From Bacteroidota bacterium (GTDB lineage: Bacteria > Bacteroidota > JABWAT01), in the NCBI GenBank assembly GCA_020161835.1, contig JAIUNL010000004.1, forward strand, positions 65,049-129,048: a stretch of 64,000 bases of DNA, written 5' to 3'. The translations under genes and the position numbers were made by a program. A model generated the notes under the pieces. It ran no database searches, had not been told where the DNA came from, and worked only from the letters and a program-made list of their open reading frames with translations. This document shows, piece after piece, positions 3,088 to 59,658 of this stretch. How positions within the stretch are numbered: the first letter of the stretch is position 1; each line of letters starts with the position of its first letter.

Positions 3088-3176
3088 ATGCGGATTTGCG
3101 CGCAAAGGCGCTAAGACACAAAGAAAACGCTAAGCGGAGGGAGGGTTTTTTATTTAATTCATGGATGAAATTCGTA

Positions 3177-3210
3177 GGGGCGACCGGCCGGTCGCCCGTG
3201 TTTTTTTGTT
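3177..3210 (+). terminator. rho-independent terminator (GGGGCGACCGGCCGGTCGCCC + TTTTTTTG) after TBDR-like gene
   Basis: GC-rich perfect hairpin followed by T-run. Confidence 0.75.
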
Positions 3211-3233: not shown

Positions 3234-3312
3234 TTCCCCTCTCCCGATAAAATCGGGATTTTCAACTTTTCAAGGAGAGCCCGTCCCGAACGCTTTCGGG
3301 AGGTTAGGGGTG
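3234..3312. repeat. composite palindromic element (TTCCCCTCTCCCGATAAAATCGGGA...GGAGAGCCCGTCCCGAACGCTTTCGGGAGG..GGGG); copy at 15775-15850
   Basis: Direct comparison. Confidence 0.7.
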
Positions 3313-3601
3313 GTTTGATATTTAAACTATTAAAACCGCATTCCCAAAATTGATATTTAATCCTGATTTTATCCGCGAAATCAGCGGGATCTGCGGGAAA
3401 ATAGTACCTCCGGGATTACCGACCAGAGGTCGGTGTTACATAAATTCCCATCCCACCGCTCTGTGTTCATTGGTATTTCCTTTGTGCCCGTTGTGGTAAA
3501 ATAAAATTCCCATCCCACCGCTCTGCTTCCTCCGTGTCTCCGCGGTTGAATTTTCCACCTGCCCAAACATTAGAATCAGATTAGAGACCACCTCATTCCT
3601 T

Positions 3602-9198: not shown

Positions 9199-9254
9199 AA
9201 CAAAGGTTAAAGGTTTAATTGTAAAGGTTAAATGGGAAATGCAAATTTTCCCGC

Positions 9255-9865
9255 AGATCTAACGGATTTCTGCTGAAGAAAAAAGAGTTCAACCACAGAA
9301 ATATCAGAAGTCACAGAAAAAACTTCTTTTTAAAACCCGAATTCAATTCCTTTTATGCATATTCTGTACCTTCTGTGGTGAAAAGGTATTGGAGCCCTGA
9401 CTTCACTTTGTGACTTCCGCTGAAGAAAAAAGAGTTCAACCACAGAAACTACAGAAGTAGCAGAAAAAACTTCCTGTTTAAAACATAAACTCAATTCCTC
9501 TTCTGAATATTCTGTTTCTTCTGTGGTGGAAAGGTATTGAAGTCCTGACTTCACTTTGTGACTTCCGCTGAAGAAAAAAGAGTTTAACCACAGAAATAAC
9601 AGAAGAAGCAGAAGGTAATTTCCTTTTAAGAACCCGAATTCAATTCCTTTTCTGCATATTCTGTACCTTCTGTGGTGGAAAGGTATTGAAGTCCTGACTT
9701 CACTTTGTGATTTCCGCTGAAGAAAAAAGAATTCAACCACAGAAATATCAGAAGTCACAGAAAAAACTTCTTTTTAAAACCCGAATTCAATTCCTTTTCT
9801 GCATATTCTGTACCTTCTGTGGTGAAAAGGTATTGGAGGCGTGTCCTGAATTTGGGATTTCCAAT
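9255..9865. repeat. tandem array, ~4.1 copies of a 149-bp unit (family A of the 149/150-bp repeats)
   Basis: Unit starts at ~9271, 9420, 9569, 9717; copies ~85-95% identical; each unit contains imperfect inverted repeat AACCACAGAA...CAGAAG / CTTCTGTGGTG. Confidence 0.9.
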
Positions 9866-14206: not shown

Positions 14207-14351
14207 CCGGTTATCAGAAAAATTGATGCTGAGTTTGATTTACCATTAATCATTGCCCCTTAACCATTATAGCCTTTTTCCCTTCACTTTTACTATGTAA
14301 TTTGTCCTCCGAATCCATCAAAGGCAGGATTAAAATATCACTGTAACTTTC

Positions 14352-14725
14352 ACTTAAGAAAAATGGGTTTAACCACAGAAATTACTGAAGGAGCAGAAAG
14401 AAATTTCCCAATAAAAACCCGAATTCAATTCCTTTTCTGCATATTCTGTGTCTTCTGTGGTGAAAAGGTATTGGAGTCCTGTCCTGACTTTGTGATTTCA
14501 TCTGAAGAAAAAAAGAGTTTAACCACAGAAATTACAGAAGGCACAGAAGGAAATTCCCTATTAAAAACCTGAATTCAATTCCTTTTCTGCATATTCTGTG
14601 TCTTCTGTGGTGAAAAGGTATTGGAGTCCTGTCCTGACTTTGTGATTTCATCTGAAGAAAAATGGGTTTAACCACAGAAATTACAGAAGGAGCAGAAAGT
14701 AATTTCCCAATAAAAACCCGGATTC
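14352..14725. repeat. tandem array, ~2.5 copies of the 149-bp unit (family A)
   Basis: AACCACAGAAATT recurs at 14371, 14521, 14671; unit ~85% identical to the 9255-9865 units. Confidence 0.9.
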
Positions 14726-14761
14726 AAGATTCATTAACCATTAATCATTTACCATTAACCA

Positions 14762-15730
14762 TTATTCCCCTGCGTCTTCCGCATCAAAGCCTTGTTCTCT
14801 GAGCCACCGGCTGAAAATTCCTTCTGTTCCATGAGTTACGATGATTTTGTCAGCTCCGGATTCAGTTATCGCCTTATTTAATGCCGGCCAATCAGCATGA
14901 TCTGACAAAATAAATCCACGGTCAAACGCCTGCCAGTTTCTTCTCTTACTCACCGCCATCCACCCCGAAGCAAAAGCAACCGAATACGGTTCAAACTGAG
15001 TCATGAACGGTGATCCTTTCCCCGAAACCGGTGTGATCACCAATCCCCGTCTGAGTTCCTCCGGCTTCACTGAGTCAACCAGTAAATTGACTTTTGGAAC
15101 GGGAATTCCAAATTCCCGGAGTGACTGATTCATGGTCTCCACGGAAGGATGACAGAAAACAGGTCCGGTTGAATAATCGAGATGATGAAGAATCCGTTGG
15201 GCTTTTCCCAAAGAGTAGGCGTTCAATACGGAAGTTTTTCCTTCAGCCTGGTTTTGTTTCCACCAGCGGTTGATTTCAGCAAAAACCTGATCCTGATCGG
15301 GCCAGCGATAAATGGGAAGTGCAAAAGTTGCTTCAGTGATGAAGGTGTTGCATGTCACAGTTTCAAAAGGCTGGCAAACCCGGTCATTTTCAAGTTTGTA
15401 ATCTCCCGACGCCACCCAGACTTCACCCTGATACTCCACACGGACCTGAGCCGAACCGATGATATGTCCTGCCGGGTGCAAACTGATCGTAACGCCGTTG
15501 ATGGTTACCGGGACACCATACTCTTCAGTTCTGAGGCGAATATTTTTCCCGAGACGGGTTTTGAGAACCGGTTCAGAGTCACGGTGAGCGAAATAAGAAG
15601 CGTGCCCGGACCGGGCATGATCTGAATGTCCGTGCGTAATCACAGCCCGCTGAACAGAACGAAGCGGGTCGATGTAAAAATCTCCGGCTTCGCAGTAAAT
15701 TCCGTTGGGTGTAAATTGGAGAAGGGGCAT
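14762..15730 (-). CDS. metallo-beta-lactamase fold exonuclease (ligase-associated DNA damage response exonuclease-like)
   Basis: N-terminal LQFTPNGIYCEAGDFYIDP...VITHGHSDH motif (HxHxDH MBL signature); 322 aa. Confidence 0.5.
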   Translation of the reverse strand: MPLLQFTPNGIYCEAGDFYIDPLRSVQRAVITHGHSDHARSGHASYFAHRDSEPVLKTRLGKNIRLRTEEYGVPVTINGVTISLHPAGHIIGSAQVRVEYQGEVWVASGDYKLENDRVCQPFETVTCNTFITEATFALPIYRWPDQDQVFAEINRWWKQNQAEGKTSVLNAYSLGKAQRILHHLDYSTGPVFCHPSVETMNQSLREFGIPVPKVNLLVDSVKPEELRRGLVITPVSGKGSPFMTQFEPYSVAFASGWMAVSKRRNWQAFDRGFILSDHADWPALNKAITESGADKIIVTHGTEGIFSRWLREQGFDAEDAGE

Positions 15731-15774
15731 TTTGGTTACATATTACGGGTTACAGATCACGTGTTAATTTCCAG

Positions 15775-15850
15775 GTTCCCCTCCTTTTTTAAAGGAGAGC
15801 CTGCCCCGAACGCTTTCGGGACACCCCTCCTTAAAAAGGAGGGGAATTTT
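15775..15850. repeat. composite palindromic element (CCCCTCCTTTTTTTAAAGGAG...CCGAACGCTTTCGGGAC...CCCCTCCTTAAAAAGGAGGGG); copy of element at 3234-3312
   Basis: Direct comparison of the two loci. Confidence 0.7.
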
Positions 15851-17917: not shown

Positions 17918-18020
17918 GGGGATAATTCCGAATTACGAATGACGAAACGAAGTTCTGCGAAGCAAATTTTAAATTTTGAATTTTAAAAATTGAAGAATGA
18001 AAAAAATCTTTGATTTAATT

Positions 18021-18130
18021 GTCATTCCCGCGAAGGCGGGTCATGAAATGTGCGAAGCAAGTCCAGTATTTATTCAAACAAACTAATACAAAATTCAATT
18101 ATGGATTCCCGCCTTCGCGGGAATGACATC
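18021..18130. repeat. two inverted copies of a small palindromic element forming a perfect 19-bp inverted repeat (TCATTCCCGCGAAGGCGGG ... CCCGCCTTCGCGGGAATGA) between selU and selD
   Basis: Seen in sequence; ~65-nt spacer. Confidence 0.8.
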
Positions 18131-18156
18131 AGTTTATACCATTAAACATTAACCAT

Positions 18157-19197
18157 TTACCATTGAGCCTTAAGCCTACCTAAAGCCTCCACCACCCGGT
18201 CAGCATTTCCCGCCGGATCAATCTTTTCGCATGGAACACGGATGATCGATTCCGGATCCCGTTTCGACGTCCCGAAATCATAGCCCGGATCGTAATAACG
18301 GGTCAGCAGAAATTCGGACAAGGTCAGCCAGTCACCGGTTTCAAGCCAGAGAAGACATTGTTTCGTATCGGTTCCGCCCAGTTTTTCCCGGATTTTCAGA
18401 ATTGATTTTTCCAGATTGACCGGTTCGGTTTTGCCGTATTCTTCAACCAGCTTTTTCGCCCGTTCCTGAACCGGAATATCCAGATAGATTACCGGCGCCG
18501 TTCTCATTTTCGGCCAGAAAAATTCATTGATCTGAATGGATCCGGTCTTGTGACTTTCATCTTCCAGCCAAACCACTTTTTCAGGATTTACCGAAACCCA
18601 ATCCAACCCAAGATCGTTGTCAAACTGTTCCTGAGTCGGTTGAGCAGGTTGATCGATGTCACCAAATGCAGAACCTTTGTGATTTGCAAGCAGTTCCAAA
18701 TCGATGATCTGCTGATTTCTTTCCGGAAGGAGGTGAAGCACATCTGTTTTCCCTGAACCGGTTCTTCCGCCAAGAATCACCAGTGGCTTTGAGGTTTTAA
18801 ATTCCTCAAGAATATGGCGGCGGTAAGCCTTATATCCGCCATTGACGATGTAAACAGTATATCCATAAAAACCGAGAAGCCAACCCACCGCACCGCTTCT
18901 CATTCCGCCACGCCAGCAATGAACCAAAACAACCCGGGAATCGGTAACCGATTTAACCTGTTCGATGATTGGCCGCATTTTGGGTCCGACAAAATCCAAC
19001 CCTTTGAGAATTGCCGCCTGCTTGCCTTCAGTTTTGTAAGTCAATCCGATGATATGCCGTTCTTCAACAGAAAAAAGAGGGAGATTCAGGGCACCTGGAA
19101 TGTGTCCCTGACGGAATTCTGCTTCGGTACGGACATCAAAAACGGGGAATTGTTTTCGTTTAACGAGGAATTCAGAATTGTCGCAATGGAACGTCAT
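18157..19197 (-). CDS. selU: tRNA 2-selenouridine synthase
   Basis: N-terminal rhodanese domain (VDVRTEAEFRQGHIPGALNLP, CWRGGMRS) and P-loop GGRTGSGKT; 346 aa; adjacent to selD. Confidence 0.8.
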   Translation of the reverse strand: MTFHCDNSEFLVKRKQFPVFDVRTEAEFRQGHIPGALNLPLFSVEERHIIGLTYKTEGKQAAILKGLDFVGPKMRPIIEQVKSVTDSRVVLVHCWRGGMRSGAVGWLLGFYGYTVYIVNGGYKAYRRHILEEFKTSKPLVILGGRTGSGKTDVLHLLPERNQQIIDLELLANHKGSAFGDIDQPAQPTQEQFDNDLGLDWVSVNPEKVVWLEDESHKTGSIQINEFFWPKMRTAPVIYLDIPVQERAKKLVEEYGKTEPVNLEKSILKIREKLGGTDTKQCLLWLETGDWLTLSEFLLTRYYDPGYDFGTSKRDPESIIRVPCEKIDPAGNADRVVEALGRLKAQW

Positions 19198-19700
19198 AGT
19201 TTTTGCAGAAAGTAAATTGTAAAGATACGAAATTTTAAAATACCGGGGACGGAATGGTTACAGGTCACGGATTACGGGTAACGGGAAATACAGGGATTTA
19301 GAAAAGTCTTGAAATCGATTTGCTTCTTCGCCGTCATCCGGTCGACGCCGCGGCCAATGAAGTGCCCTGACAAAAAATGTCAGTGTCTGCTTTTTAAAAT
19401 TTGCTTTGTGCTTAATCGTCTATGTTCTGACATTTTTCAGGGCCGAAGTGCCAGCCGCAAGTCAAAGAGCGGATGGGCGAAAAGGGATTTTGGGTACTTT
19501 TGTCCCGTCAAAAGTACCTCTCCGAAGGAAAAACCACCTATTTGGATGAAGGAGTTTTACAGAACTTCGTTAACCATCAGTGACTGAAAATTTATCAACC
19601 ATTTGAAAAAAAAACATGGATCCCGGCTCGTAGGCCGGGATGACAACTAAAGAGTCTGTATTTACCATTCATTTCCCTTTAATCTGTCAATTTCCTACCT

Positions 19701-20609: not shown

Positions 20610-20688
20610 GTAGGGCAGACCGCAAAGGCCCAAAGTCGCTAAGAAATTCAATCTTTTAGAAAATACAAAGAATTAAAAATTAATTTCT

Positions 20689-21108
20689 ATGATTAAATCT
20701 GGGTTTAGGAATGAAATTCAGAGTGAAGAATTAAATAATCTTGCGAAAATAATTGTTGATTCTTGTTATGAAGTTCATCGGAATATTGGTCCCGGCTTGC
20801 TCGAATCTGTATATGAAAATTGTCTTGAGATTGAATTAAAACACCGTGGAATTAAAACTGACCGGCAAGTCCCGGTTCCTTTGAAATATAAAAATGTGGA
20901 TCTTGAAAAGGAATTTTATATTGACCTGTTGGTTGAAGATAAAATTGTAATTGAAATAAAAGCAGTTGAAACCATGATTCCTGTTTTTGAAGCTCAACTT
21001 CTTTCTTATTTAAAACTGGCAGATAAACGGCTCGGTTTTCTGGTGAACTTCAATGTTCCTTTAATTAAATATGGAATTCGCCGTTTCGTAAATGGTTTGG
21101 AAAAATAA
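20689..21108 (+). CDS. GxxExxY family protein
   Basis: GPGLLESVYENCLEIEL motif (G-x-x-E-x-x-Y); 139 aa. Confidence 0.7.
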   Translation: MIKSGFRNEIQSEELNNLAKIIVDSCYEVHRNIGPGLLESVYENCLEIELKHRGIKTDRQVPVPLKYKNVDLEKEFYIDLLVEDKIVIEIKAVETMIPVFEAQLLSYLKLADKRLGFLVNFNVPLIKYGIRRFVNGLEK

Positions 21109-21232
21109 TCATTTTTTTGCTCTTAACTATAAAATAATTAGAGTCTTAGCGCCTTTGGGGTCTCTTTGAATTATCCTTTGTCTTTAACTTTAAAAAACTT
21201 AGCGTCTTAGCGCCTTTGGGGTCTCCTTTCCA

Positions 21233-26849: not shown

Positions 26850-27150
26850 CCGCCGGATAAAAACCATTGTTAACCGCAGAAAGAACAGAAATAACAGAAA
26901 AATAAATTCAACCTTTTAAACCTGATTTTATTTCCATTTCTGTCCATTCTGTATCTTCTGTGGTGTAAAAGCATTTGGCATTTTGTCTTCAACCAAGCCA
27001 TTCAAAAGTTGGCCAAAAAAACCAGTTTAACCGCAGAAATAACAGAAATAACGGAAAATTAAATTCAAATCTTTAAATCCGAATTCATTTCCCTTTCTGT
27101 CCATTCCGTATCTTCTGTGGTGAAAAAGCATTTGGCATTTTGTCTCAAAT
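26850..27150. repeat. tandem array, 2 copies of a ~150-bp diverged variant (family B) of the 149-bp repeat
   Basis: TTAACCGCAGAAA..ACAGAA...CTTCTGTGGTG core at 26869 and 27018; overlaps the TTG start of the downstream sigma-54 activator ORF. Confidence 0.85.
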
Positions 27151-28858: not shown

Positions 28859-28970
28859 GGGGAAAGCTGTTAGCTGTTGGCAATTAGCTGTTAGGTAAAT
28901 CCGAAAAAGGCTCAATGCGTAAGGCGTAAGTTTTAAGCGTCAAGGCTTGAATTTATAATTTAATAAAATG

Positions 28971-29034
28971 ACCGGACACTGAGCGGTACTTCGACTCCGC
29001 TCAGTAACCAAGTCGAAGTGCCCGGTTATTTTTA
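28971..29034 (+). terminator. nested hairpin (ACCGGACACTGAGCGG...CCGCTCAGT...AGTGCCCGGT) followed by TATTTTTAC
   Basis: Seen in sequence ~110 bp after stop of the activator gene. Confidence 0.5.
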
Positions 29035-34052: not shown

Positions 34053-34248
34053 GGGCGTTTTGATTGGAAAATTCTAAACTCTAAATACATGGATCCCGGA
34101 TCAAGTCCGGGATCCAGCATTTTCCCCTTCCTATTTTCCCCAACAAAATCTTTCAGATTATCAGATTCAAATATTGACTATTAAAAAAAGGAAGTTAACC
34201 TTTATTATCATCTAAAATGTAAAAGAAAATCACTAATCCGGGTGCAGA

Positions 34249-36687
34249 ATGAACCGATTCCTCCTTAATTTATTCAACCCTTCTTTTTTATTTTTTCTTT
34301 TCTTTCTCAACCTTCTCTCCATTCACCCCGCCTTCGCTCAGGAATCTCTTTCCGGGTTTTCATCCTTCAAACAAACCGGACGAAGTCTTCTTTTTTCAAC
34401 CGAAACCGGACAAAAACTCAGGATTACGCCATACGGCAATTTTATCGTCCGTGTTCAGGCTGTCAGAAAAGATGAAGATTTTTTCCCGGATGATTACACC
34501 GAAATGGTGGAATCGCACAATTGGACGGGACAAATTTCCGCAGATGAAAAGTCCGATCGCTTTATTCTGAAAACAAACTCCGGGGATGGCCTTTCCCTTC
34601 AGGTTAGCAAAAATCCGCTGAGACTTTCCTTTTTCCAAAACAATCTTTCTGTTCCTTTTCTGCAGGATAAAAACGGTATTCAGTGGCAACAGGATACACT
34701 TTCGGTTTCTTTTCAGTCAGATTCATCAGAACATTTTGCCGGTTTGGGTCACACCTATTTTGCCAGAACCGATAAACTGGATCTGAAGGGTGAAAAAACC
34801 AGCCGGAATTATGGCACTGAACATCATCAGCAGGCACCTCTGATCGTTCCTTTCTTTCTATCAGGAAAAGGTTACGGCATCTTTCTTAACAGCACTTTTC
34901 CCAACTCTTTTTCTTTCGGTAAAGACGGAAAGTATGAAATTTCGGTTTCTGGTGGACGGATGGATTATTTCGTCATTGCCGGACCCGAGCTCACCGACGT
35001 TCTTGACCGGTACACCCAACTCACCGGACGGCCACGGTTTCCGCCAAAAGCTGCTTTCGGACTTTCACTTTCTGACAAGGGAAACGATCACACCTCAACG
35101 GATCCTTCAGATGAAAACTGGTGGAAACGAAAAATCACTGAACACCGGGCAGCTGGATTCCCGATTGATCATATCGTGAACGACAACCGGTGGCGTGCAG
35201 GCGGCGGACAAAGATGTCTTTCCCGGTTCGACTGGGAATTAACCCGTTACCCGGATCCGACCGAGTATCAAAGTTGGGTTCAGAAAAATCACCTTTTTGT
35301 CACCCTCGATTTTAACCGGTGTATCGCCAGCCACAGTGAAGGCTGGAAACCGGATTATCTCATTCCCGCCTCCGGAAAAATTGATTTCAGTGACAGTGCG
35401 CCGGATTTCACGAAAAGGGAAGTGCGTGACTGGTTCTGGAATCTCTTCTGGACAAAATCACTGAATCCGGAATAGAACTATCCGGGAGATGCTTTGTGGA
35501 TTGATGAGTTCGATGAAATGGGCGCTGCACCTGATTCTATGATTCTGGGCAACGGAAAAACCTGGAAGGAAATGAAAAATTACTGGTTTTTCCTGATCGC
35601 CAAATCTTTAGTCGCCGATGGCTGGGATAAAAGCTTTAAGGAATCAAAACGTCCGTTTGTCTGGGTGAGAGGGATGACGGCAGGTGCCCAACGGTATGCG
35701 ACGTTGTGGAGCGGAGACATCAGACCCACAACTGACGACATGAAAACTCAGGTACGAAGTATGCAATCGGCCGGACTTTCAGGCTTTCCGTTCTGGGGCC
35801 ATGATGCTGGCGGATTTTACAACTGGGAAACCAAAAACGGTTCGGATGACCATCTTTACCGGAACTGGTCAATGGCGTTTGGCAGTTTTTCCCCAACCTG
35901 GAAACCCCACGGCGTGGGTGAGTCCCGCTGGCCGGTTGACCGTTCCGCTGAAGTTCAGAAAGATGCAAAAACTTACAGCCGGTTGCGTTATGAACTGATG
36001 CCTTACTTTTATACGTATGCCCACCTGGCTTCTGAAACCGGAATTCCGATCGCCAGAGCCATGATTCTTGGGTTTTCGCAGGAGCCTGAAGCATGGAAAC
36101 GGGATCTGCAATATATGTGGGGGAACGAATTTCTTGTTGCACCCAACTGTTCAGACAGTGACCGGGTTTCAGTCTGGCTTCCGGGCGGATCATGGTTTGA
36201 TTTCTGGAGTGATTCTCTTTTTTCCGGAAATCAGGTTCTTTCCTATCCGTCACCTACCGGAAAACTTCCTCTTTTTGTGAAAGCCGGATCTATCCTTCCG
36301 ATGACGAATTTTGCCCTCAGCACCGGCTCCCTTCCTGCAGATAGTTTAACAATTCACATCTACACCGGGAAAAACGGATCGTTCACTTTGTACGAAGACG
36401 ACGGACTTACTGAAGGTTACCGACATAAAGAAAAACGAACAACTGAAATCACCTTCAATCAGGATCAGATGTCGGTTACCGTTTTGCCAGCCAATGGAAC
36501 TTACAAAAATGCACCAGCCCAAAAAGCCTGGACGTTTGTCTTTCACGGATTTAAAAAACCGGTTTCTTTTTCAGTGAACGGAAAAAAAACAAAAACAAAC
36601 TGGGATCCTGTAAGGAAATTCCTTTCACTTTCGGCGGGCAGTTTTTCTGTGTTGGAGGATATTGAAGTGGTAATGGTTCGGGAATGA
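34249..36687 (+). pseudogene. glycoside hydrolase family 31 (alpha-glucosidase/alpha-xylosidase-like) interrupted by a single in-frame TAG at 35473-35475
   Basis: ORF-track fragments 34249-35475 and 35494-36687 are in the same frame; sequence spanning the stop (..SLNPE*NYPGDALWIDEFDE..) matches the GH31 nucleophile region of the intact paralog (GIWTDLGEPE); downstream GHDAGGF acid/base-region motif. Confidence 0.55.
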
Positions 36688-36699: not shown

Positions 36700-36960
36700 G
36701 ATTAGGTTCTCCCCTTTCAAAAAGGGGAGATGCCGAAGGCAGAGGGGTTTGGTTTTTAAAGTCTGCCAGCGGCGAAAAATGCGGGTCAGGTTCTTTTACT
36801 GTCATCCCGGATGTCGAAGATCCGTCCACCGACGGAATCCGGGATCCAGTATTTTTTCTAATTAATTCAAATACACGGTGGGATGGATTTGCTACGCACA
36901 TTGCATGACCCGTCTTTCCGTCGGTTGACGGATTTACAACACGGGAATGACAGCCCCATG
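36700..36960. repeat. intergenic cluster of small palindromic elements (CTCCCCTTTCAAAAAGGGGAG; GTCATCCCGGAT..ATCCGGGATC; CCGTCGGTTGACGG)
   Basis: Seen in sequence; the minus-strand 138-aa ORF here is probably spurious. Confidence 0.6.
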
Positions 36961-39456: not shown

Positions 39457-40124
39457 ATGATGAATGTTGAAGGAAACTCGTAACCCGTCAACCGACGGGG
39501 TGGCCTCTTGGTAGCCAAATGACACAGAGCGCAATGGACGGTTAGCCTGTCGAATTGCCGCTTTTTTGAGGGTAAATGAATTTCAAATTCCCTGGCTTCA
39601 ACCCCGTAGGGGTGACCTGATTGTAACCCCGGGTGTCAACCCGGGGATAACGTCACCCCAAAAGCCAACCGCCCGGCCACCATTTCATTTGAAACTGGTA
39701 CCTCCGTTCCGGGCGGAACAAGATTGTTCTCCCGCTGATCCCGTTGATTTACACGGAAAATACGTTTTAACTTGGATATTCAGGATTGTCAGGATGAGAA
39801 AAGAATTGTTAATGATTAATGATCAATGGTTAATGAAATTCTGACTGTTTTGCAATCCCTTAGGGGTGACCTGATTGTAGAAAAAGAGAACCACCAACCA
39901 ACATCACCGCTCGACCACAAATCGTTTTTTAATTCCTTTCCCCCCTGTAATCAATCGATTACACCCACCTGTAACAATCTGCTTACAAGTCATCCCCCGA
40001 AAGGGTTAGTTTCCTTCCAAAACCAGCCCATTTCCCAAATAAATCACAAATTCAGCTTAATTTTTCCTGGTTAACATTTCCGGCACAGTCTTTTCAATAG
40101 TTTGGATCAGAAAACGGAAGGTAA

Positions 40125-40406
40125 ATGGATCAAAAGCGGATTTTAATTGTTGCCCCTGACCTGGAAGTGCTAAAAGCCATCAGGTTCAGATTTTCTGATA
40201 ACCGGGTCAGTTTGTTCACTGCAGACGATCTGGCAACGGCAGAAAAAATAATCATCTCGCTCGATCCGAAGATTGAAAAGGCATTTCTACACCGTGATCT
40301 GTCCCCATCAGATCATAAAGAAATAAAGGATTTATGCCACAATCTTGGAATTCCTTCGGTTGACTTTGACGATACTGTTTCAGGTGAATGGATTTTACGA
40401 GGATAA
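40125..40406 (+). CDS. hypothetical small protein (receiver-like N-terminal fragment?)
   Basis: 93 aa; KRILIVAPD start resembles REC N-terminus but too short and lacks canonical acidic pocket; in-frame with downstream ORF. Confidence 0.3.
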   Translation: MDQKRILIVAPDLEVLKAIRFRFSDNRVSLFTADDLATAEKIIISLDPKIEKAFLHRDLSPSDHKEIKDLCHNLGIPSVDFDDTVSGEWILRG

Positions 40407-40409
40407 TTT

Positions 40410-40850: not shown

Positions 40851-40939
40851 TTCGACCGCAGAGACGCTGAGAACGCAGAGAAATGCAAATTATTAGGTTG
40901 ACCCCAAAGGCCCAAAGGCGCTAAGAATTCTGTTTTTTT

Positions 40940-41135
40940 TTATTTAATTTCTGGGTTGGTGTCTGCCCAAGTTTCTGATTCCCCTCCTTTTCCAAAGGAG
41001 GGGAAAATCCGGTCACTGAGTCCCGAGAATCGGGAAAGTGCTCGGATTGGGGTGGTTTGTATTTTTATAGGTTCAGGAAAACCACCCCGGCTTCGCCACC
41101 CCTCCTTTGGAAAAGGAGGGGAATTTAATGGCCAA
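40940..41135. repeat. cluster of small palindromic elements (CCCCTCCTTTTCCAAAGGAGGGG x2, CACTGAGTCCCGAGAATCGGGAAAGTGCTCGG)
   Basis: Seen in sequence. Confidence 0.6.
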
Positions 41136-41197
41136 TAGCGAATAGCCTAGACCCTAAGATTTTCAACTGTCAGGTATTTAGAATTTATTGTAACACC

Positions 41198-41270
41198 GAC
41201 CTCTGGTCGGTATTCAGGAGTTTTAAGGAAGAATCTCCGACCCGGAGGTCGGAGTTACAAAAATGCGGGA
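41198..41270. repeat. ~70-bp double-hairpin palindromic element (TGTAACACCGACCTCTGGTCGG ... CCGACCCGGAGGTCGGAGTTACA); inverted copy at 43481-43550
   Basis: Reverse complement of this segment aligns almost base-for-base with 43481-43550. Confidence 0.75.
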
Positions 41271-41349
41271 TTTGAAACACCATTACCCATTTAACATTTA
41301 GCCTTGAGAATTTAACCTTTCCCCTTACGCCTTAAGCCTTAAGCCCGCC

Positions 41350-43302
41350 CTACTCCTCCAGTTGTGCGGCCAGTTTTTCCCATTTCTTGTACAGCGGTGG
41401 AAGTTCTGACTTCAGAGCATCGTATTTCTTGGAGGATTTCAGCAATTCCTGAGTATTCTTTTTCAAAAAGGATTCTGATGCCATTTCGGCTTCGATTTCC
41501 TTGATCTGCTTTTCTTTTTCGGCAATCTGCTTTTCAAGCGTTGAGAATTCCTTCTTCACACCCTTCAGCGATTCATGCTTCTTCTGGCGCTCTTCAGCTT
41601 CCTGGCGTTTCATTTCTTTCGATTTGAAACCGGAGTTCTGATCTTTTTTATCCGATTTTTTCGAAGATTCGGCTTTTACTTCCGCCTGACGTTTTTTCCA
41701 GACTCTTTCATAAAATTCTGAGTACGGATCAACATAAACTTTGATCTGCTTGTTATCCAGGAAAAACACTTTCGAGGTAATCTGATCGAGGAAATACCGG
41801 TCGTGCGAAATGATCAGCAAACTGCCGTCGAAATCCATTAACGCTTCAATGAGCAGATCTTTCGATTCCATATCAAGGTGGTTGGTCGGCTCATCCATGA
41901 TAATCAGGTTGTGGGCACGAACCAAAAGTTTGGCCAATGCAACCCGGGCTTTTTCACCACCCGAAAGCACTTCGATGCGTTTAAAAGCATCATCCCCTTC
42001 AAAAAGAAAACAACCCAATAACGTTCTCACACGGGTACGGAATTCAGCCGGAGCAGCTTCGAGAACTTCATCATAAATGGTGGATTGTAAATTCAGTTCT
42101 TCAACCTGATGCTGGGCGTAATAGCCAACAGAAACATTCGACCCGATAATCAGATCACCACGGGTTTTAGGCTCTTTACCAAGAATCATTTTCACCAGGG
42201 TGGATTTACCCGAACCGTTCACCCCCGCAAGAGCGACTTTTTCGCCCCGTTCAAGAATAAAATTGAGGTGATCGAAAAGATGGTTTTCACCAAAAGCTTT
42301 TGCAAGATCACGTCCTTCAAGAACAATCCGGCCAGATCGTGGTGCTTCCGGGAAATCGAAATGGATGGATTTCTCCTTGCTGCCAAGTTCAACCCGGTCC
42401 ATTTTATCCATCAGTTTAATCCGGCTCTGCACCTGACGTGATTTGGATGCCTTGTACCTGAACCGTTCAACAAACCGGTTTAACTGAGTCAGTTTTGCCT
42501 GCTGATTGGCGTACTGGGCTTTAAGAATTTCTTCCCGTTTAACTTTATCTTCTTCGTAAAAAGTATAGTTTCCGGCATATTCGGTGATTTTTCCGAATTC
42601 AATTTCAAGCACTCGGTTAACGATCTGATCCAGAAAGAACCTATCGTGCGAAATGATGATGAGCGCACCTTCGTAGGACTTCAGGTAACTTTCGAGCCAT
42701 TCGAGAGTTTCAAGATCCAGGTGGTTGGTCGGCTCATCGAGCAACAGATAATCCGGACTTGCACAAAGCAGTTTAGTGATGGCAATCCGCATTCTCCATC
42801 CACCCGAAAACTGAGAAACCGGACGGGTAAAATCTGAGGTTTTGAATCCAAGTCCGCTCAGAATTTCTTCTGCACGCGTTTTTGCTGTGAATCCGTCTGC
42901 AACTTCATATTTATGCTGAAGATTGCCGTAATGGTTCAGAATATCAGCGAGATCAGGATTGTTTGTGGCCGAATATTCTTCGATGAGAAGTTCGGTTTTG
43001 CGGAGTTCATCTTCGAGACTCATAACTGAACCAAAGGCGGTCAGAACTTCATCAATGACTGAAAGATCGCCGGGAGATTGGGCAAAATCCTGGGATAAAT
43101 AGCCAATTTCGACGCCTTTAGCTTTGTGGACTTCGCCCTTGTCTGGAAGGATTTCCCCGGTGATCATTTTCATCAGGGTGGATTTGCCTTTACCGTTGGC
43201 GCCAACGATGGCAACCCGGTCACGGACGGTGAATTGGGCAGAAACGCCCTCAAAAATAACCTGGTGGTTATACTGTAAATGGATGTTGGAAAGTGAAATC
43301 AT
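41350..43302 (-). CDS. ABC-F family ATPase (two ABC domains, Uup-like C-terminal coiled coil)
   Basis: Two Walker A (GANGKGKST, GVNGSGKST), two LSGG signatures (LSGGWRMR, LSGGEKAR), C-terminal K/E-rich coiled coil; 650 aa. Confidence 0.85.
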   Translation of the reverse strand: MISLSNIHLQYNHQVIFEGVSAQFTVRDRVAIVGANGKGKSTLMKMITGEILPDKGEVHKAKGVEIGYLSQDFAQSPGDLSVIDEVLTAFGSVMSLEDELRKTELLIEEYSATNNPDLADILNHYGNLQHKYEVADGFTAKTRAEEILSGLGFKTSDFTRPVSQFSGGWRMRIAITKLLCASPDYLLLDEPTNHLDLETLEWLESYLKSYEGALIIISHDRFFLDQIVNRVLEIEFGKITEYAGNYTFYEEDKVKREEILKAQYANQQAKLTQLNRFVERFRYKASKSRQVQSRIKLMDKMDRVELGSKEKSIHFDFPEAPRSGRIVLEGRDLAKAFGENHLFDHLNFILERGEKVALAGVNGSGKSTLVKMILGKEPKTRGDLIIGSNVSVGYYAQHQVEELNLQSTIYDEVLEAAPAEFRTRVRTLLGCFLFEGDDAFKRIEVLSGGEKARVALAKLLVRAHNLIIMDEPTNHLDMESKDLLIEALMDFDGSLLIISHDRYFLDQITSKVFFLDNKQIKVYVDPYSEFYERVWKKRQAEVKAESSKKSDKKDQNSGFKSKEMKRQEAEERQKKHESLKGVKKEFSTLEKQIAEKEKQIKEIEAEMASESFLKKNTQELLKSSKKYDALKSELPPLYKKWEKLAAQLEE

Positions 43303-43480
43303 GGCGCGAAGATAAAAAACGGATGGGCGTATTCCGAAAGGAAGGACGAAGAATTAATGGTCAATGGTAAATGGTTAAGGGTTAATGGGGGAAATGACAG
43401 TGGTAATTCGTCCCCTTTTGAAGGGGGTGGCCCGTTCCGTTGATCGGATCGGGACGGGGGATGTTGTATTCTGTATTCCT

Positions 43481-43550
43481 GTAACTCCGACCTCCCGGTC
43501 GGAGATTTTTCCGGGAAATTTCAGAATACCGACCGGAGGTCGGTGTTACA
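43481..43550. repeat. inverted copy of the 41198-41270 double-hairpin element
   Basis: See above. Confidence 0.75.
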
Positions 43551-43614
43551 ATAAATTCCATTTACCATTGAGCATTTACCATTTAACATTATGCCTAACG
43601 CTTCCCGCCTTTCC

Positions 43615-44235: not shown

Positions 44236-44594
44236 CTAAACTGAAACCCGTTTTAAGGTCATACCAGAAAGACACAGGTCGCTCCTAAGGAGCTTATTTT
44301 TTTTTCGCGTTTTGGATTCTACAAACAGGTCGCACCTCTGGTGCTGCAAGAAATAGAATCACCAAAATTGTTCTTGCCCCAATTACCAACGGCGTTCGGT
44401 TTTCATTTCTCACCCCGAAAGTGTTTCCAAGTTTAACCGGATCCGCGGTTCGTAACCGAACCTTGGACGGGATCTTCGCTTCGCTGGACTTTTAACTTAT
44501 CACTTACCACTTATAACTTACCACTCGTTCCGTTTACGTCCCCAATCCCGTTCCGGTTGCAGGTTTTCAGGAAGTTCGCTATCTTTGTTGTTCA

Positions 44595-45823: not shown

Positions 45824-45953
45824 TTCTGAAATAACTGATATATTGATTTCATCCCTTCCCGCAACCGGGAGGAATCCAATATAGAAGGCATGGATGAGCT
45901 TCGCAGAACTTCGTTAACCGGATCAAGTCCGGGATGACATCCCTAAAATGAAA

Positions 45954-45990
45954 TAAAAAAACCCGTTGAAACCAACGGGTTTTTTTATTT
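45954..45990. terminator. bidirectional rho-independent terminator (AAAAAAACCCGTTG..CAACGGGTTTTTTTATTT)
   Basis: A-run, perfect hairpin, T-run. Confidence 0.75.
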
Positions 45991-46046
45991 CCTGTTTTTC
46001 ACTTCCTTCAGGAATTTAATTCCCCCGTTTTCTCGTTTCAGCGGTT

Positions 46047-46694: not shown

Positions 46695-49174
46695 TGTCAG
46701 TGTTTCAGGTTTTTAAAGTCCTCACCTTCCACTATTACCGCCGATTTAAACTCCGCTGGATTTTATGCACCGCCGGTGTTGCCATTGGGGTTGCCGTGGC
46801 AACGTCAATCAATCTAACCAGCGACCGTGCGGTTTATTCCTTCTCAGAAACCCTTGAATCGGTAACCGGAACTGCCAACCTTCAGCTTACCGCCGATCCC
46901 GGACTGAGTCCCGATAGTTTATGGTCGGCGTCCTGGATCTGGAAAGTGGGTTATTACTCGCCCTTTATTCAGACAGCAGGGACTTCAAAAGGCAAAACCT
47001 ACCGGTTGTACGGATTTGATTTTGTAGGTGACCGCCGGATCCGCCAGCTGCAGACTTTGCAAAACGATTCAATTAAAACTTCCGTCAATGGCGTTTTTAT
47101 TCCTGTCGATTCCCCTTTGGGCAACGAAGGCGATACCGTCACGATTGTGATTAATGCGGTCCGGTATCAATTGATTATTGCCGGAAAAGTCAGCGCCATC
47201 AGCGGAAAACTTCCGCCACGAAATGCCATTTTTGCCGATCTTTCACTTCTGCTTCCTATCACGAAAACCGTTTCCGGACTCGATATTTCCGTTCCGGCAG
47301 ATTCACTCGATTCTGTTAAAAATAAACTTCAGCTTCAGTTCCCCACCGCCAGAATTGAAACTCTGAACGAGAGAAAACAAACCACAGCCGAACTGTTTTC
47401 TGCATTCCGGATGAATTTGCAGGCGCTGGGTTTAATTGCTCTTCTGGTTTCTGCTTACCTGGTTTACAACACGCTTTTCCTTTCGGTCATTCAAAGGCGG
47501 CAAACCATCAATCTCCTGCTTTCTTTGGGAAGTCACCGCCGTAGTATTTTCATTGCCTTGTTGGTTGAAGGTGCGTTTTTCGGAACGATTGGCGGACTTT
47601 TCGGACTTGCCGCCGGGATTCTGCTGGCTTCTTTGACCTACTCAGAAGTGTCTCAAACCCTGACCGCCGTTTTTCAGCTTTCTGACAGTCAGCTCAGTTC
47701 CTTTTCGTGGATGGCTCTTGCCGGATCGTATCTGACCGGCATCATTTTCGCCACTCTGGCGGCCTGGTATCCGGCATGGCTGGGTTCTGGAACTCCAATT
47801 TCCCGTTCGCTCAAACGCGGACAAAGTGAATTTTCATCAGCCAGATTAAAAAAATCGGTCATCATTGGCGTTTCTGCGCTTCTGTTGGTTTTATTTTCTG
47901 TCTGGATGGCATCGGTTGCAGAAAATCCGCTCTGGGGATATGCAGGCGTTACTTTTTCGATTCTGATGCTGAGCTTTCTTGCGCCTCCTGTTTTAATTTT
48001 ACTTACAAGCCTGCTGAAGAAACTGTCGTCTGCCGGAGAAATTCTGCTGGCAACCTCGTCAGTGAAAGAGCACATGGTGAAAGTTTCGATTGCCGTGGCG
48101 GCTTTAACTATGACGTTAAGTATGGCCGGTGCCGTCGGGATTATGGTTCACTCCTTCCGGACGACTTTGGATGACTGGTTAACCCGATCAATTGTTGCCG
48201 ATATTTATCTCAAATCATCATCCGATCCAACCCAGCTTGTCGGAACGATCAATCCGGACGTGATGGCAATTCTAAGAAATCACCCGATGACTGAAAATGT
48301 GATTACCCTGAGAACAACCCAGATTAAAATTGACGGACTTCTCACTGATATCGGCGCCAACGAAACCTCGGTTTATTTCAAGGCAAGTCCGGCCGATCTG
48401 GTTGCCGGAAATCCTGAGAATCTGGGGCTTCTGCAGAAAAAAGGCGGGGTTGCCGTGAGTGAAGTTTTTGCCAACAAGCACCATCTCACTGCCGGAGACA
48501 CCGTCCACATCCGTCAATATGCCTATCCGATTCTCGCTGTTTACCGGAATTACAGTTCTGACCGTGGATTTTTGCTGATGGATACGCTTCAGTTTTCACA
48601 GCTTTTCGGATATAAAGATCCGACCGCCGCTGCAGTTTTTCTGAAACCCGGAATTTCTTCGGATTCTGCCCTTTTAAGTCTCAGAGATTCCCTGAAAAAT
48701 TTCGAAATGGATTTATCAGTCAACAAAGACATCAGGGAAAATGCGCTGGCGATTTTTGATCAGACATTCAGAATGACACGAATTCTTCAGCTGATTTCGT
48801 TTTTCATTGCTTTACTGGCTGTCATCACCACTTTGAGTTCCATTATTCTTGAGCGGCGGAAGGATTTTGCGACTTTGGTCAGTCTGGGAAGTTCAACTTT
48901 TGGGATGTACCGTTCCTTGGCCATGGAAAGTCTGATTCTCACCGGAACCAGTCTGATTCTGGCTGCCGCCGGAAGTGCTGTGCTTTCTGCCCTGCTCATT
49001 CAGGTTATCAACCGGTATTCGTTTGGCTGGACGATTGTAACCGATATTCCATTTGGTGAACTGGCCTTTACCGGTGTGGTGATGATTCTGGTTTCCCTGA
49101 TTGCAGCAGCCTTCCCGATGAAAATGATCAAAAAACTTAATCTGCCTGAGAATCTGAAAGGAACGATCGGATAA
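46691..49174 (+). CDS. FtsX-like ABC transporter permease (two FtsX modules)
   Basis: 827 aa, ~10 TM segments in two 4-TM FtsX-type blocks separated by large extracytoplasmic domains; overlaps ATPase gene by 4 bp. Confidence 0.75.
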   Translation: MMSVFQVFKVLTFHYYRRFKLRWILCTAGVAIGVAVATSINLTSDRAVYSFSETLESVTGTANLQLTADPGLSPDSLWSASWIWKVGYYSPFIQTAGTSKGKTYRLYGFDFVGDRRIRQLQTLQNDSIKTSVNGVFIPVDSPLGNEGDTVTIVINAVRYQLIIAGKVSAISGKLPPRNAIFADLSLLLPITKTVSGLDISVPADSLDSVKNKLQLQFPTARIETLNERKQTTAELFSAFRMNLQALGLIALLVSAYLVYNTLFLSVIQRRQTINLLLSLGSHRRSIFIALLVEGAFFGTIGGLFGLAAGILLASLTYSEVSQTLTAVFQLSDSQLSSFSWMALAGSYLTGIIFATLAAWYPAWLGSGTPISRSLKRGQSEFSSARLKKSVIIGVSALLLVLFSVWMASVAENPLWGYAGVTFSILMLSFLAPPVLILLTSLLKKLSSAGEILLATSSVKEHMVKVSIAVAALTMTLSMAGAVGIMVHSFRTTLDDWLTRSIVADIYLKSSSDPTQLVGTINPDVMAILRNHPMTENVITLRTTQIKIDGLLTDIGANETSVYFKASPADLVAGNPENLGLLQKKGGVAVSEVFANKHHLTAGDTVHIRQYAYPILAVYRNYSSDRGFLLMDTLQFSQLFGYKDPTAAAVFLKPGISSDSALLSLRDSLKNFEMDLSVNKDIRENALAIFDQTFRMTRILQLISFFIALLAVITTLSSIILERRKDFATLVSLGSSTFGMYRSLAMESLILTGTSLILAAAGSAVLSALLIQVINRYSFGWTIVTDIPFGELAFTGVVMILVSLIAAAFPMKMIKKLNLPENLKGTIG

Positions 49175-49235
49175 TGGTTCATGGTCAATTGTTAATGGTT
49201 AATGGAAAACAATTTTCACTGAATATTTTTTGAGC

Positions 49236-49324
49236 ATGTCATCCTGAGTGATCCCGATCCCGAACGCTTTCGGGACGGGATTGTATCGAAGGACGACATG
49301 CCCCGAAAGTCAGGAAAGTGCCCT
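49236..49324. repeat. ~90-bp palindromic element (GTCATCCTGAGTGATCCCGATCCCGAACGCTTTCGGGACGGGATTGTATCGAAGG...GAAAGTGCCC); second copy at 57084-57171
   Basis: Two copies ~85% identical seen in sequence. Confidence 0.75.
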
Positions 49325-49473
49325 GTATTTTCAGATAATTGTACTTGAGTAACTGAAATCTGGTAATGAAAGTCCCCCTTTGCGATTAATTCCCCCCGTA
49401 ATTTTTCCCCGTTTTGCACATCTGTTACTTCCTTTGTACTTTTAGTCCGTAAGCTTACTAAAGAAACCGGCCC

Positions 49474-54916: not shown

Positions 54917-55119
54917 TTGACTGGTCACTGAGTCCCGATTTTCGGGAAAGTGCCCGGTCAACTGTGACAAGTCGAGCGAAGCGAAGATCCCGAATTAACT
55001 TCGGGGTGGTAAGTTCAGACTAATACAGCTCCAATCCCACGTCTGTGATTGGGGTGACAGGCAGTAGAACCTTACGTTTGATTTTTTCAGATTGAATAGT
55101 AACTTTCGGAATCTATTTT

Positions 55120-55335
55120 TTGAGGATTATTATGTCTTACAAATTCTTTGGCTTGGCACTTCTTTTACTATCTGCCTGTTCTTCAAACAAAACTGAATCC
55201 CCTGAAATTACATCCGATAGTTTATCGGTTTCCAAACCTGACTCAGTTGTTTCCTTACCGGATTCAGTTTCATCCCTTGATGAACAAACCAAAAAAACTG
55301 AAGAAAAAGTAAACGATTTATTGAAGGGAATCTAA
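55120..55335 (+). CDS. small hypothetical lipoprotein
   Basis: Signal peptide + lipobox (LLSACSS); 71 aa; 2-bp spacing to next gene. Confidence 0.35.
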   Translation: MRIIMSYKFFGLALLLLSACSSNKTESPEITSDSLSVSKPDSVVSLPDSVSSLDEQTKKTEEKVNDLLKGI

Positions 55336-55337
55336 AT

Positions 55338-55832: not shown

Positions 55833-55850
55833 CAGGAAAAATTGAATTAT

Positions 55851-55895
55851 AACCCGTATCCAGGCTAATCGGATACGGGTTTATCCCCGTTTATT
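55851..55895 (+). terminator. hairpin AACCCGTATCC..GGATACGGGTT followed by T-containing tail
   Basis: 11-bp perfect stem 19 bp after stop of the K/E-rich protein gene. Confidence 0.45.
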
Positions 55896-56040
55896 GCGTT
55901 CCCCACGACCCTCCAACCAAAGTCTAATGTCATTTCTTTGATCTGAAAGCGGATTCCCCGTAATTTTGCAACACTTTAATTCAATAACAATGAATTCCGG
56001 ATCGTTTGTGATGGAATTCCCCGATCGTAGGAGATGTGAG

Positions 56041-57024: not shown

Positions 57025-57083
57025 AATCAGTTATAAGTTACAAGTGGTAAGTTACAAGTGATTTAATATCGGACTTCAAGCTT

Positions 57084-59614: not shown

Positions 59615-59658
59615 CGGTGTGACGGGGTAAGTGGTAAGTGGTAAGTGGTAAGTGGTAA

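Follow-up and report, generated by a model that had tools for sequence, protein, structure and literature searches.

Short palindromic repeats crowd the intergenic DNA of the 64,000 nt stretch analysed here (the window), which comes from a Bacteroidota bacterium (GenBank assembly GCA_020161835.1, contig JAIUNL010000004.1, positions 65,049–129,048, forward strand); we group them into families (a) to (f), nested in one another and accompanied by tandem arrays of 7 nt units. By analogy, the overall picture appears closest to the small dispersed repeats (SDRs) and the short tandemly repeated repetitive (STRR) heptamers of the Nostocaceae. SDRs, which Elhai and co-workers reportedly described in 2008 (Genome Res 18:1484), are said to be very small hairpins (~20–27 nt), often sitting in tandem heptamers (STRR), nested and without target duplications. 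We know of no enzyme or mode of mobility for them. Compared by behaviour and description only, the window resembles this system in its module (b), a 20 nt palindrome, and in its period-7 arrays; unlike that system, it belongs to a different phylum and has different sequences, and module (b) spans many phyla, which is not reported for SDRs. PMC5861425 places SDRs only in the Nostocaceae, and other background on SDRs and STRR comes from citations in that paper and in PMC2884548 and PMC4692102. We think it rather probable that the window repeats are short non-coding hairpin families of the kind known as repetitive extragenic palindromic (REP) sequences, bacterial interspersed mosaic elements (BIMEs) and miniature inverted-repeat transposable elements (MITEs), multiplied in the intergenic DNA of one uncultured lineage and still turning over. 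They represent a familiar kind of repeat that is unusually busy here, rather than a system of a new kind.

Three described classes supply anatomical comparisons. REPs of the CGTC-tagged superfamily (Di Nocera, De Gregorio & Rocco, 2013; PMC3733652) have a CGTC tag (TGTC and CCTC being allowed), an 8–9 bp stem opening with A-T and T-A, a loop of 4–5 nt and a tail approximating CCA; a genome carries many of them, scattered between its genes and often paired head to head, and they have no known transposase of their own. The superfamily includes dRS3 of Neisseria (CGTC-1) and RPE-6 and RPE-4 of Rickettsia, and was earlier reported from Bacteroidetes and Chlorobi; REP insertion within small palindromes has also been described (PMC3733652). 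A REPIN consists of two inverted REPs in one long hairpin, with a GTAG tetranucleotide at the REP 5' end and a single-copy RAYT gene with flanking REPs (Bertels & Rainey, 2011; PMC3116915). The BIMEs of Escherichia coli and the neisserial intergenic mosaic elements (NIMEs) are, like the window, intergenic mosaics of several repeat types that vary between strains, but the window elements are mainly nested in the tips of other elements rather than alternating, and their flanks are heptamer arrays.

The repeats were counted within the window, and expectations were taken from dinucleotide-preserving shuffles (n=100). The family (a) motif CCGGGATGAC has four exact matches and 14 at one mismatch or fewer (3.5 expected), the (b) motif CCCGAACGCTTTCGGGA five sites (0.16 matches expected), the (d) motif GGTCGGTGTTACA five (0.95 expected) and the (e) motif GGAAAGTGCCCGG seven matches, four of them genuine (1.5 expected); in each of these cases none of the 100 shuffles held as many. 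For family (c) the bare motif AAAGGAGGGG is not significantly enriched (11 against 7.3 expected), and its six exact copies make up three perfect hairpins or inverted pairs. Repeat coverage was measured with k=14–16, k=10–12 being too noisy: 16-mers that occur at least twice make up 15.3 % of intergenic but 0.55 % of coding bases. All 35 catalogued copies lie outside open reading frames (ORFs), 26 of them between genes on the same strand and seven between convergent genes, many at 20–130 nt from a stop codon. Ten of 11 elements fold far better than shuffled sequence, with z-scores of −3.1 to −10.2. Re-reading of the sequence placed families (a) to (e) at, or a few bases from, the positions given in a preliminary description of the window, and added two (a) copies (1–40 and 36915–36952). 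The pairs of composite elements that it proposed are real, 49233–49305 and 57079–57151 being 84 % identical over 73 nt and 3267–3301 and 15787–15821 being 91 % identical over 35 nt, and its REP/MITE-like interpretation agrees with the anatomy set out below, in which (a) is a CGTC-type REP, (d) forms REPIN-like doublets and (c) supplies the terminal inverted repeats (TIRs) of nested-hairpin composites. Its statement that almost every intergenic region longer than 100 bp contains an element was too strong: families (a) to (e) are present in 16 of the 31 regions of at least 100 nt, and any repeat class, with heptamer arrays and tandem units of ~150 nt included, in 24.

The organism and its relatives were placed by the ABC-F protein encoded on the minus strand at 41350–43302, which is identical (100 %) to MCA0445622.1 and shares a 90 % cluster with MBN8704769.1 of the metagenome-assembled genome (MAG) UWPOB_BACT1; beyond that cluster the nearest relatives stand at 81 % protein identity (GCA_023151185.1, locus L005), then 64 % and then below 50 %. 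Parts of the window region were available in three further versions, namely a JGI contig (L002 and L135, 93–99 % nucleotide identity), a Logan contig (L003, 96 %) and UWPOB_BACT1 (L195, 91–95 %). As strains available for comparison there are the window organism itself, the JGI 3300015615 contigs, ERR9580544 and UWPOB_BACT1 (GCA_017303995.1). The Logan contigs of the window organism are only 2–4 kb long, and some terminate within or beside repeat-rich spacers. About 52 ORFs of at least 100 aa, predominantly on the plus strand, leave 16.9 % of the window intergenic by the ORF table, and Pfam shows housekeeping and transport genes of an ordinary kind among them.

Comparison of these versions shows that copies come, go and are exchanged within the time over which strains diverge, and that they are organized by nesting. 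The suggestion of active or recent mobilization made in the preliminary description is borne out in that genomes at 91–99 % identity differ at orthologous sites by the presence or absence, replacement and nesting of elements, and in that an element-free relative has compact intergenic DNA with ordinary terminators. The Logan contig is without 40946–41156, that is, the whole of a 149 nt composite and its flanks, and the right end of the same element (40977–41125) is deleted in UWPOB_BACT1. The JGI contig lacks ~45835–45945, which contains an (a) copy, and has 16 unrelated nucleotides there, the adjacent true terminator (45945–45996) being retained; at 58401–58517 it has other heptamers and a composite with a frame of the 49233 type around a different inner hairpin, and at 54933 its (e) tip is CGGAGTTG where the window has TCCCGATTTTCGGGAA. 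Where the window has an (e) frame with a 90 nt composite in its tip (49216–49325), UWPOB_BACT1 has a plain (e) hairpin, CAGGTCACTGAG-TGGAGTC-GAAGTGCCCTG; the split REP pair at 36800–36952 corresponds to a single 36 nt REP, TGTCATTCC...GGAATGACA, the one REP at 34090 to a 233 nt cluster with four CGTC-type REPs, and the frame 'h' element at 43403–43470 to a c+b+f composite. UWPOB_BACT1 also has an extra 131 nt 'h' element at 49382, and at loci with no relation to the window it again has (a), the c+b+f composite and heptamer arrays. Neither the families nor heptamer arrays occur in the more distant L005 (81 % amino acid identity); ordinary unique terminators stand at the orthologous places, and 6.7 % of its DNA is intergenic against 16.9 % in the window (2.5 times less).

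Judged on its sequence, family (a) belongs to the CGTC-tagged REP superfamily by tag, stem, loop and tail. The tag strand reads TGTC-ATCCCGGA-CTTGA-TCCGGGAT-CCA, or TGTC-ATTCCCGC-GAAG-GCGGGAAT-CCA in a second subtype. Of nine copies in 64 kb, all intergenic, eight carry the TGTC tag (1–40, 18020, 18104, 19616, 36800, 36915, 45917 and 60755), and the ninth, at 34090, has lost it and is symmetric. The stems are of 8 bp with first pairs A-T and T-A (ATCCCGGA/TCCGGGAT, ATCCCGGC/GCCGGGAT and ATTCCCGC/GCGGGAAT); the loops are GAAG (4 nt) or CTTGA (5 nt), 6 nt at 19616 and longer where a hairpin is nested (36800 and 36915), and the CCA tail is seen at 18104, 19616, 34090, 36800 and 60755. The subtype ATTCCCGC-GAAG-GCGGGAAT fits the pattern of dRS3, the consensus of which we take to be ATTCCC-N8-GGGAAT. 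Two copies of this dRS3-like form make the one inverted dimer (18020–18130, unstranded, TGTC tags outward, z=−7.6; hairpin elements of the window given here and below are on the plus strand unless marked unstranded), which lies in the SelU–SelD spacer, 239 nt long in the window and 9 nt in L005. The copy in a divergent promoter region (19616–19648, tag strand TGTC-ATCCCGGC-CTACGA-GCCGGGAT-CCA) has an identical 35 nt counterpart at an unrelated locus of UWPOB_BACT1 (L069), and that at 60755–60785, of the first subtype, lies 27 nt after a stop codon. A partial copy (...GGCGGGAATGACA) with a nested TCCGGCCACCGACGGA hairpin is cut by the window edge at 1–40 and shares a TCCGTC-N-GACGGA module with 36800–36952. 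The latter (unstranded; from sequence and fold) comprises two halves, TGTCATCCCGG... and ...CGGGAATGACA, ~65 nt apart, each with a nested TCCGTC-N4-GACGGA hairpin. The symmetric copy (34090–34117, unstranded; from a direct repeat and the sequence) reads TGG-ATCCCGGA-TCAAG-TCCGGGAT-CCA, and a truncated one ends the strain-variable block 45835–45945, after a hairpin, CCCTTCCCGCAACCGGGAGG, and the motif GCTTCGCAGAACTTCG. The tag, stem, loop and CCA tail are as in the superfamily, and the window copies are intergenic and in part arranged as inverted dimers; unlike it, several of them enclose a further hairpin in their loop or are interrupted by more than 100 nt, and at least five other families, together with heptamer arrays, are interspersed among them.

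Family (b) is the 20 nt palindrome R-TCCCGAA-NNNN-TTCGGGA-Y; among the matches listed, conservation outside the core in 122 copies from public genomes is limited to R-T 5' of it and A-Y 3' of it, so that the unit is ~20 nt long. A wider TCCCGA-loop-TCGGGA set, (b) included, occupies six sites in the window. Units of (c) are the inverted ends of two larger elements, 15776–15846 (c-b-c) and 40977–41125 (c-e-f-c), and the same TIR pair, ATTCCCCTCCTTT...AAAGGAGGGGAAT, bounds a third at L076 6172–6320; all three have TIRs and none has a target-site duplication. The first is a 71 nt MITE-like composite that folds as one hairpin (−24.2 kcal/mol, z=−5.6) where L005 has a plain terminator. The second, 149 nt in length, has (c) TIRs around an (e) unit with a TCCCGAGAATCGGGA tip and an (f) hairpin, GGGGTGGTTT...AAACCACCCC, and folds as a single nested hairpin (−54.5 kcal/mol, z=−10.2); the element at L076 is its sister. 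These 71–149 nt composites with inverted (c) ends, one of them present or absent between strains, recall MITEs such as Correia/NEMIS, ERIC and Nezha, but they are without target-site duplication, no transposase was found in the window, their 'TIRs' are themselves palindromes and their interior is a variable set of other repeat modules. Among (c) units outside such composites are a solo hairpin, TTCCCCTCCTTCTCAAGGAGGGG (57200–57224, unstranded; sequence and motif search), and a (c)-like variant, TCTCCCCTTTCAAAAAGGGGAGA (36708–36732, unstranded; read by eye). The composite at 3234–3312 contains a degenerate (c) arm, a TCCCGATAAAATCGGGA hairpin, the (b) copy TCCCGAACGCTTTCGGGA and GGGGTGGTTT; it folds little better than shuffled sequence (z=−2.0), which marks it as a decayed copy.

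Family (e), the frame 'h' (CCCCTTTTGAAGGGGGTGG...GGGGGATGT) and the element of the 49233 type are conserved outer frames with differing inner hairpins, and in (e) it is the tip that differs among copies. At 49216–49325 an (e) frame (CACTGA...GAAAGTGCCCTG) holds in its tip a ~90 nt composite made up of TGTCATCCTGAGTGAT, then GATCCCGA-(b)-CGGGATTG and then GTATCGAAGGACGACATG (z=−5.4). A second ~90 nt composite (57079–57172) shows, by repeat alignment and fold, compensatory stem changes from CCCG/CGGG to CCTG/CAGG. A hammerhead-like reading of CUGAGUGA...GAA in the 49233 composite was rejected, the core being by inspection unlike CUGANGA. The (e) hairpin at 54920–54960 has a TCCCGATTTTCGGGA tip (z=−4.3), and a long form at 28974–29027 has interleaved complementary segments, CACTGAGCGG / ACTTCGACT / CCGCTCAGT / AGTCGAAGTGCCCGG (z=−3.1). 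Frame 'h' is represented by 43403–43470, read as TCCCCTTTTGAAGGGGGTGG, a variable hairpin and GGGGGATGT, and by 58437–58505, where motif and k-mer searches located a degenerate (b), CTCGAACGCATTCGGGA, inside it.

The unit of family (d) is a palindrome with a 7 bp stem, tagged on the outside with TGTAAC/GTTACA. Of three window sites, two hold inverted doublets, each of which forms one hairpin (41189–41259, TGTAAC...GTTACA, z=−6.5; 43480–43550, z=−5.9; both unstranded), the first having the same architecture as in many metagenome contigs and the second being conserved in L002 and UWPOB_BACT1; the third is a singlet, ACCGACC-AGA-GGTCGGT followed by GTTACA (3417–3440), with the same unit as the metagenome copies. 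Elsewhere (d) was found as 74 units in 56 metagenome stretches, and the TGTAAC (GTAA) tag is invariant in all of them. In contigs of sample Ga0209460 the majority of units are in TGTAAC...GTTACA inverted doublets, and this sister organism also has families (a), (b), (c), (e) and (f); singlets occur in unrelated low-GC and high-GC organisms. As in REPINs, two short inverted palindromes ~20–30 nt apart form one long hairpin with the unpaired tag outermost, and doublets predominate in a related metagenome organism; unlike REPINs, the tag is GTAA(C), close to GTAG but distinct from it, the (d)-bearing contigs searched (450 kb) yielded no cognate RAYT with (d) on its flanks, and singlets occur in unrelated organisms. 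Given that tag and the lack of a demonstrated RAYT, we do not file (d) as a REPIN. The ORFs that (d) doublets flank are of the housekeeping type (MeaB, an epimerase, SelR and similar). A RAYT association was also sought by tblastn with approximate IS200 and YafM queries in 1.47 Mb of loci; this revealed none, the single weak match being a broken RAYT-like gene of another organism at L181 9941–10890 (JGI contig Ga0209016_1001148, GC content 31 %), which scores 63 bits with NF047646 on the reconstructed sequence (cutoff 80). This gene is broken exactly at the HUH motif by GTAGAGACGTTGCATGCAACGTCTCTAC hairpins and is partly duplicated, the second fragment being followed by a family (d) REP.

Several of these observations weigh against the preferred reading, that of hairpin families which multiply and turn over. 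Among the window's 52 ORFs of at least 100 aa, the 40 that were scanned with Pfam yielded no transposase, integrase, phage or insertion sequence (IS) gene; no RAYT flanked by (d) was detected in 450 kb of (d)-bearing contigs, and the only RAYT-like gene near a (d) copy is the broken one just described, in another organism. The strain differences are replacements or complex indels and not clean insertions, and could thus stem from deletion, gene conversion or illegitimate recombination instead of transposition. In 11 of 12 tandem contexts of this lineage a composite containing (b) has the orientation of the gene upstream of it, and this, with the compensatory stem changes, fits selection on RNA structure equally well. 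No transposase having been found, the mobilizing mechanism is one that we infer. New copies may form on DNA that is single-stranded or extruded as a hairpin, and may favour the loops of hairpins already present as landing sites. One candidate agent would be an HUH/Y1 (RAYT-like) enzyme whose gene lies elsewhere in the genome, a proposal that suits the REPIN-like (d) best; another would be cleavage of a hairpin tip followed by recombinational repair from a paralogue with the same outer stem, which would explain why frames stay conserved when their interiors are swapped and why target duplications are missing.

Recombination might even suffice alone, with no transposase at all, the tips being cleaved by an SbcCD-type activity or stalling replication and then repaired from a paralogue with the same outer stem; we regard this as possible but doubtful. 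Such a process would swap inner modules and homogenize arms, much as in the unexplained replacement-type mobility proposed for cyanobacterial small dispersed repeats. It would suit the frames of (e), 'h' and the 49233 type with their differing inner hairpins, the (e) copy at 54933, where ~8 nt of tip are replaced by a 16–18 nt module, and the ~90 nt composite standing in place of a 7 nt (e) tip at 49216–49325, and the tRNA pseudo-copies described below show the same replacement pattern. CGTC-type REPs are in any case without a dedicated transposase (PMC3733652). The duplications that the preliminary description had proposed to look for did not appear: no target-site duplication is clean at the three (c)-bounded elements or at any strain difference, the sole candidate being CCTTTG on both sides of the 131 nt element of UWPOB_BACT1. 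Gene conversion, however, cannot seed a first copy at a non-homologous locus, such as the SelU–SelD spacer or tRNA arms unlike the module; an exact donor for the 54933 tip is absent from the window, and the REPIN-like (d) doublets are a classic signature of RAYT-driven elements.

The positions past stop codons raise another question, namely whether the hairpins are elements of the 3' untranslated region (UTR) selected by the host, acting as terminators or as barriers to 3'–5' exonucleases that stabilize the upstream mRNA, so that their resemblance reflects selection for a few very stable stem–loops. The placement of 26 of 35 copies between same-strand genes and of seven between convergent genes, many of them 20–130 nt past a stop codon, the co-orientation of (b) composites with the upstream gene in 11 of 12 contexts and the compensatory changes between copies would all be expected of such elements, and REPs are reported to affect mRNA stability and termination (PMC3733652). 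Orientation relative to the upstream gene, which the preliminary description had put forward as a check, is in fact divided, the (b) composites of this lineage being biased and (a) occurring in both orientations; across other phyla (b) shows no bias (23 versus 28 among the matches listed), and one copy lies in a divergent promoter region. A T-run (at least four T within 12 nt, on either side) accompanies only 12 of the 35 copies, so most are not ordinary terminators; canonical terminators are separate from the elements (3178–3205 and 45945–45996), and the second adjoins an element and is kept where that element is absent. Strains whose flanking genes are identical differ in whether an element is there, and L005 does without them. 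The families moreover recur in contigs of the same lineage and in the sister organism from another metagenome, and (b) and (d) also in other taxa. Together with the few T-runs and the separate terminators, this goes against the alternative, raised in the preliminary description, of ordinary terminators without family structure. No Rfam family reached its gathering threshold in the window, and at E≤0.5 there were three sub-threshold matches, all terminator hairpins. We judge a host-selected RNA role unlikely on this balance, though not without weight. If, as we prefer, the repeats are multiplying hairpin families, their location in 3' UTRs would have them co-transcribed, and effects on mRNA ends or stability would be secondary.

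It is very improbable, in our estimation, that the repeats are chiefly landing pads for IS, phages or integrative elements, as are dRS3 and REPs in Neisseria, Pseudomonas and E. coli, and are kept for or created by those elements. REPs are documented IS targets (Tobes & Pareja, 2006, cited in PMC3733652), a PDDEXK_3 gene (20689–21108) lies between inverted GCGCTAAGA-type repeats and an 893 nt insert (55015–55907) directly follows an (e) element. Nearly all copies are nevertheless unoccupied, the 64 kb window yielded no IS, integrase or phage gene, and a role as target leaves the multiplication of the repeats themselves unexplained. The nuclease gene, of the PD-(D/E)XK type (PF13366; region 20610–21232), stands between genes for a carbon-nitrogen hydrolase and an agmatine-deiminase-type protein that are normally side by side, and resembles a small inserted cassette; inverted GACC.CAAAGG.C.AAAG.CGCTAAGA / TCTTAGCGCCTTTGGGGTC repeats stand on either side of it, and the repeat also occurs singly at 3098–3125 and 40900–40927. 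As a candidate mobilizing nuclease it was rejected, 1 Mb of module-(b)-bearing loci having yielded no homologue. The 893 nt segment, where the JGI contig (L135) has 14 nt, carries an ORF of 164 aa without Pfam match (55338–55832), and its insertion point is directly after the (e) element and a GGTGGTAAGT heptamer stub.

Module (b) extends well beyond this lineage. The exact 17-mer is present in at least 117 stretches of GTDB genomes, and carriers among the matches listed include Balneolales, Saprospiraceae, Chitinophagaceae, Ignavibacteria, Chlorobi, Nitrospirota, Verrucomicrobiota, Cloacimonadota and others; one carrier, Gracilimonas halophila KCTC 52042 (L018), is in culture. About 84 % of the copies listed extend the palindrome by T...A, from which we estimate that roughly four-fifths of the matches are genuine and the rest due to chance, many of these in high-GC coding DNA. 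The flanks are not conserved. That (b) is always the tip of a longer hairpin was rejected: at least four further contiguous pairs were found in only 13 % of 123 copies among the matches listed, against 4 % of controls.

In other genomes the module also turns up within tRNA-like sequences. Beside genuine tRNA genes, one to four degenerate tRNA copies are present at L023, L027, L029, L030, L041, L050, L079, L084, L090, L104, L109, L113, L115 and L120, in which a whole 17 nt anticodon arm, or 6–10 nt of an arm, is exchanged for an 18 nt TCCCGAA-NGCN-TTCGGGA; in some, other arms are exchanged for other hairpins of the TCCCGA type. These account for ~14 of 117 (b) matches among those listed. At L030 and L079 the pseudo-copies are tandem arrays of 112 nt units, and L050 and L109 have the module at the same site in opposite orientation. 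A search of the literature for tRNA pseudo-copies with replaced arms returned nothing, and the window itself yielded no tRNA or tmRNA. Prompted by the tip swaps between strains and by these pseudo-copies, we tentatively consider, with little confidence, that R-TCCCGAA-NGCN-TTCGGGA-Y and its TCCCGA-loop-TCGGGA relatives may be a cross-phylum mobile module that replaces hairpin tips or stem–loops without target duplication. If so, it would account at once for the Russian-doll composites, for the tip swaps and for the exact replacement of anticodon, D or T arms in tandem tRNA pseudo-copies of Balneolales, Melioribacteraceae and other FCB-group genomes; DNA mobility would then be guided by structure and not by sequence, and no characterized transposition pathway matches this.

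The heptamer arrays are the other component shared in kind with the Nostocaceae. Period 7 is unique, with 12 segments against none for periods 5, 6 and 8–11 at the same threshold, and unit type and copy number vary between strains, the arrays being absent from L005 and present in UWPOB_BACT1. A typical intergenic region runs from a stop codon through a heptamer array, at least one hairpin composite and a second array to the next gene. Arrays lie at 14721–14768, 18137–18178, 41309–41347, 43349–43392, 43555–43592, 44485–44525, 49169–49209, 58382–58423, 59615–59676, 60234–60272 and 62213–62261, with weaker ones at 9199–9233, 15734–15766, 28859–28950 and 57034–57060. The units, TAATGGT, GGTAAGT, AGCTATT, CTACTAA and CATTAAC among them, abut or overlap stop and start codons; each holds a stop codon, and an array therefore amounts to stops in all three frames.

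Some further features of the window stand apart from the hairpin families. Tandem arrays of 148–157 nt units occur at 9268–9835 (3.8 copies), 14348–14727 (2.6) and 26859–27145 (1.8), the unit being a long imperfect hairpin with arms of 9 nt CAGAAATAA-like repeats between CCACAGAA and TTCTGTGG; these units have no Rfam match and were not found in any other locus fetched. A long spacer (39457–40409) contains TAGGGGTGACCTGATTGTA twice (39607 and 39861), several further hairpin modules, CCGTCAACCGACGG and CCCCGGGTGTCAACCCGGGG among them, and a short ORF (~93 aa) for which the related contigs have a gene call, and measures 496 nt between aligned blocks against 406 nt in UWPOB_BACT1. At 34249–36687 two ORFs (408 and 397 aa) are the parts of a broken GH31 glycosidase gene, which in UWPOB_BACT1 is intact (812 aa; L195 16379–18817); either the gene is a pseudogene or the sequence of the window genome is in error here. 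Two minus-strand genes at 50026–53252 (281 and 796 aa) have no Pfam match and no nucleotide alignment to the JGI strain or UWPOB_BACT1, and form a hypervariable pair between genes that are 91–97 % identical. Literature searches by exact element sequence and by peptide translation returned nothing relevant.

REP-type repeats are among the least understood parts of bacterial genomes, and the CGTC-tagged class is without a known mobilizing enzyme. The practical cost of such repeats is that they break short-read assemblies and generate spurious ORFs in MAG annotation. The value of this locus lies in an unusually clear series of site states and in a 20 nt module that crosses phyla: in close genomes (91–99 %) the same sites are empty or hold a simple hairpin, a nested element or a cluster, which provides material for reconstructing insertion, nesting and decay. 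The combination of small hairpin repeats with heptamer arrays, so far a matter of the Nostocaceae and now met in Bacteroidota, hints at a general mechanism rather than a cyanobacterial oddity.

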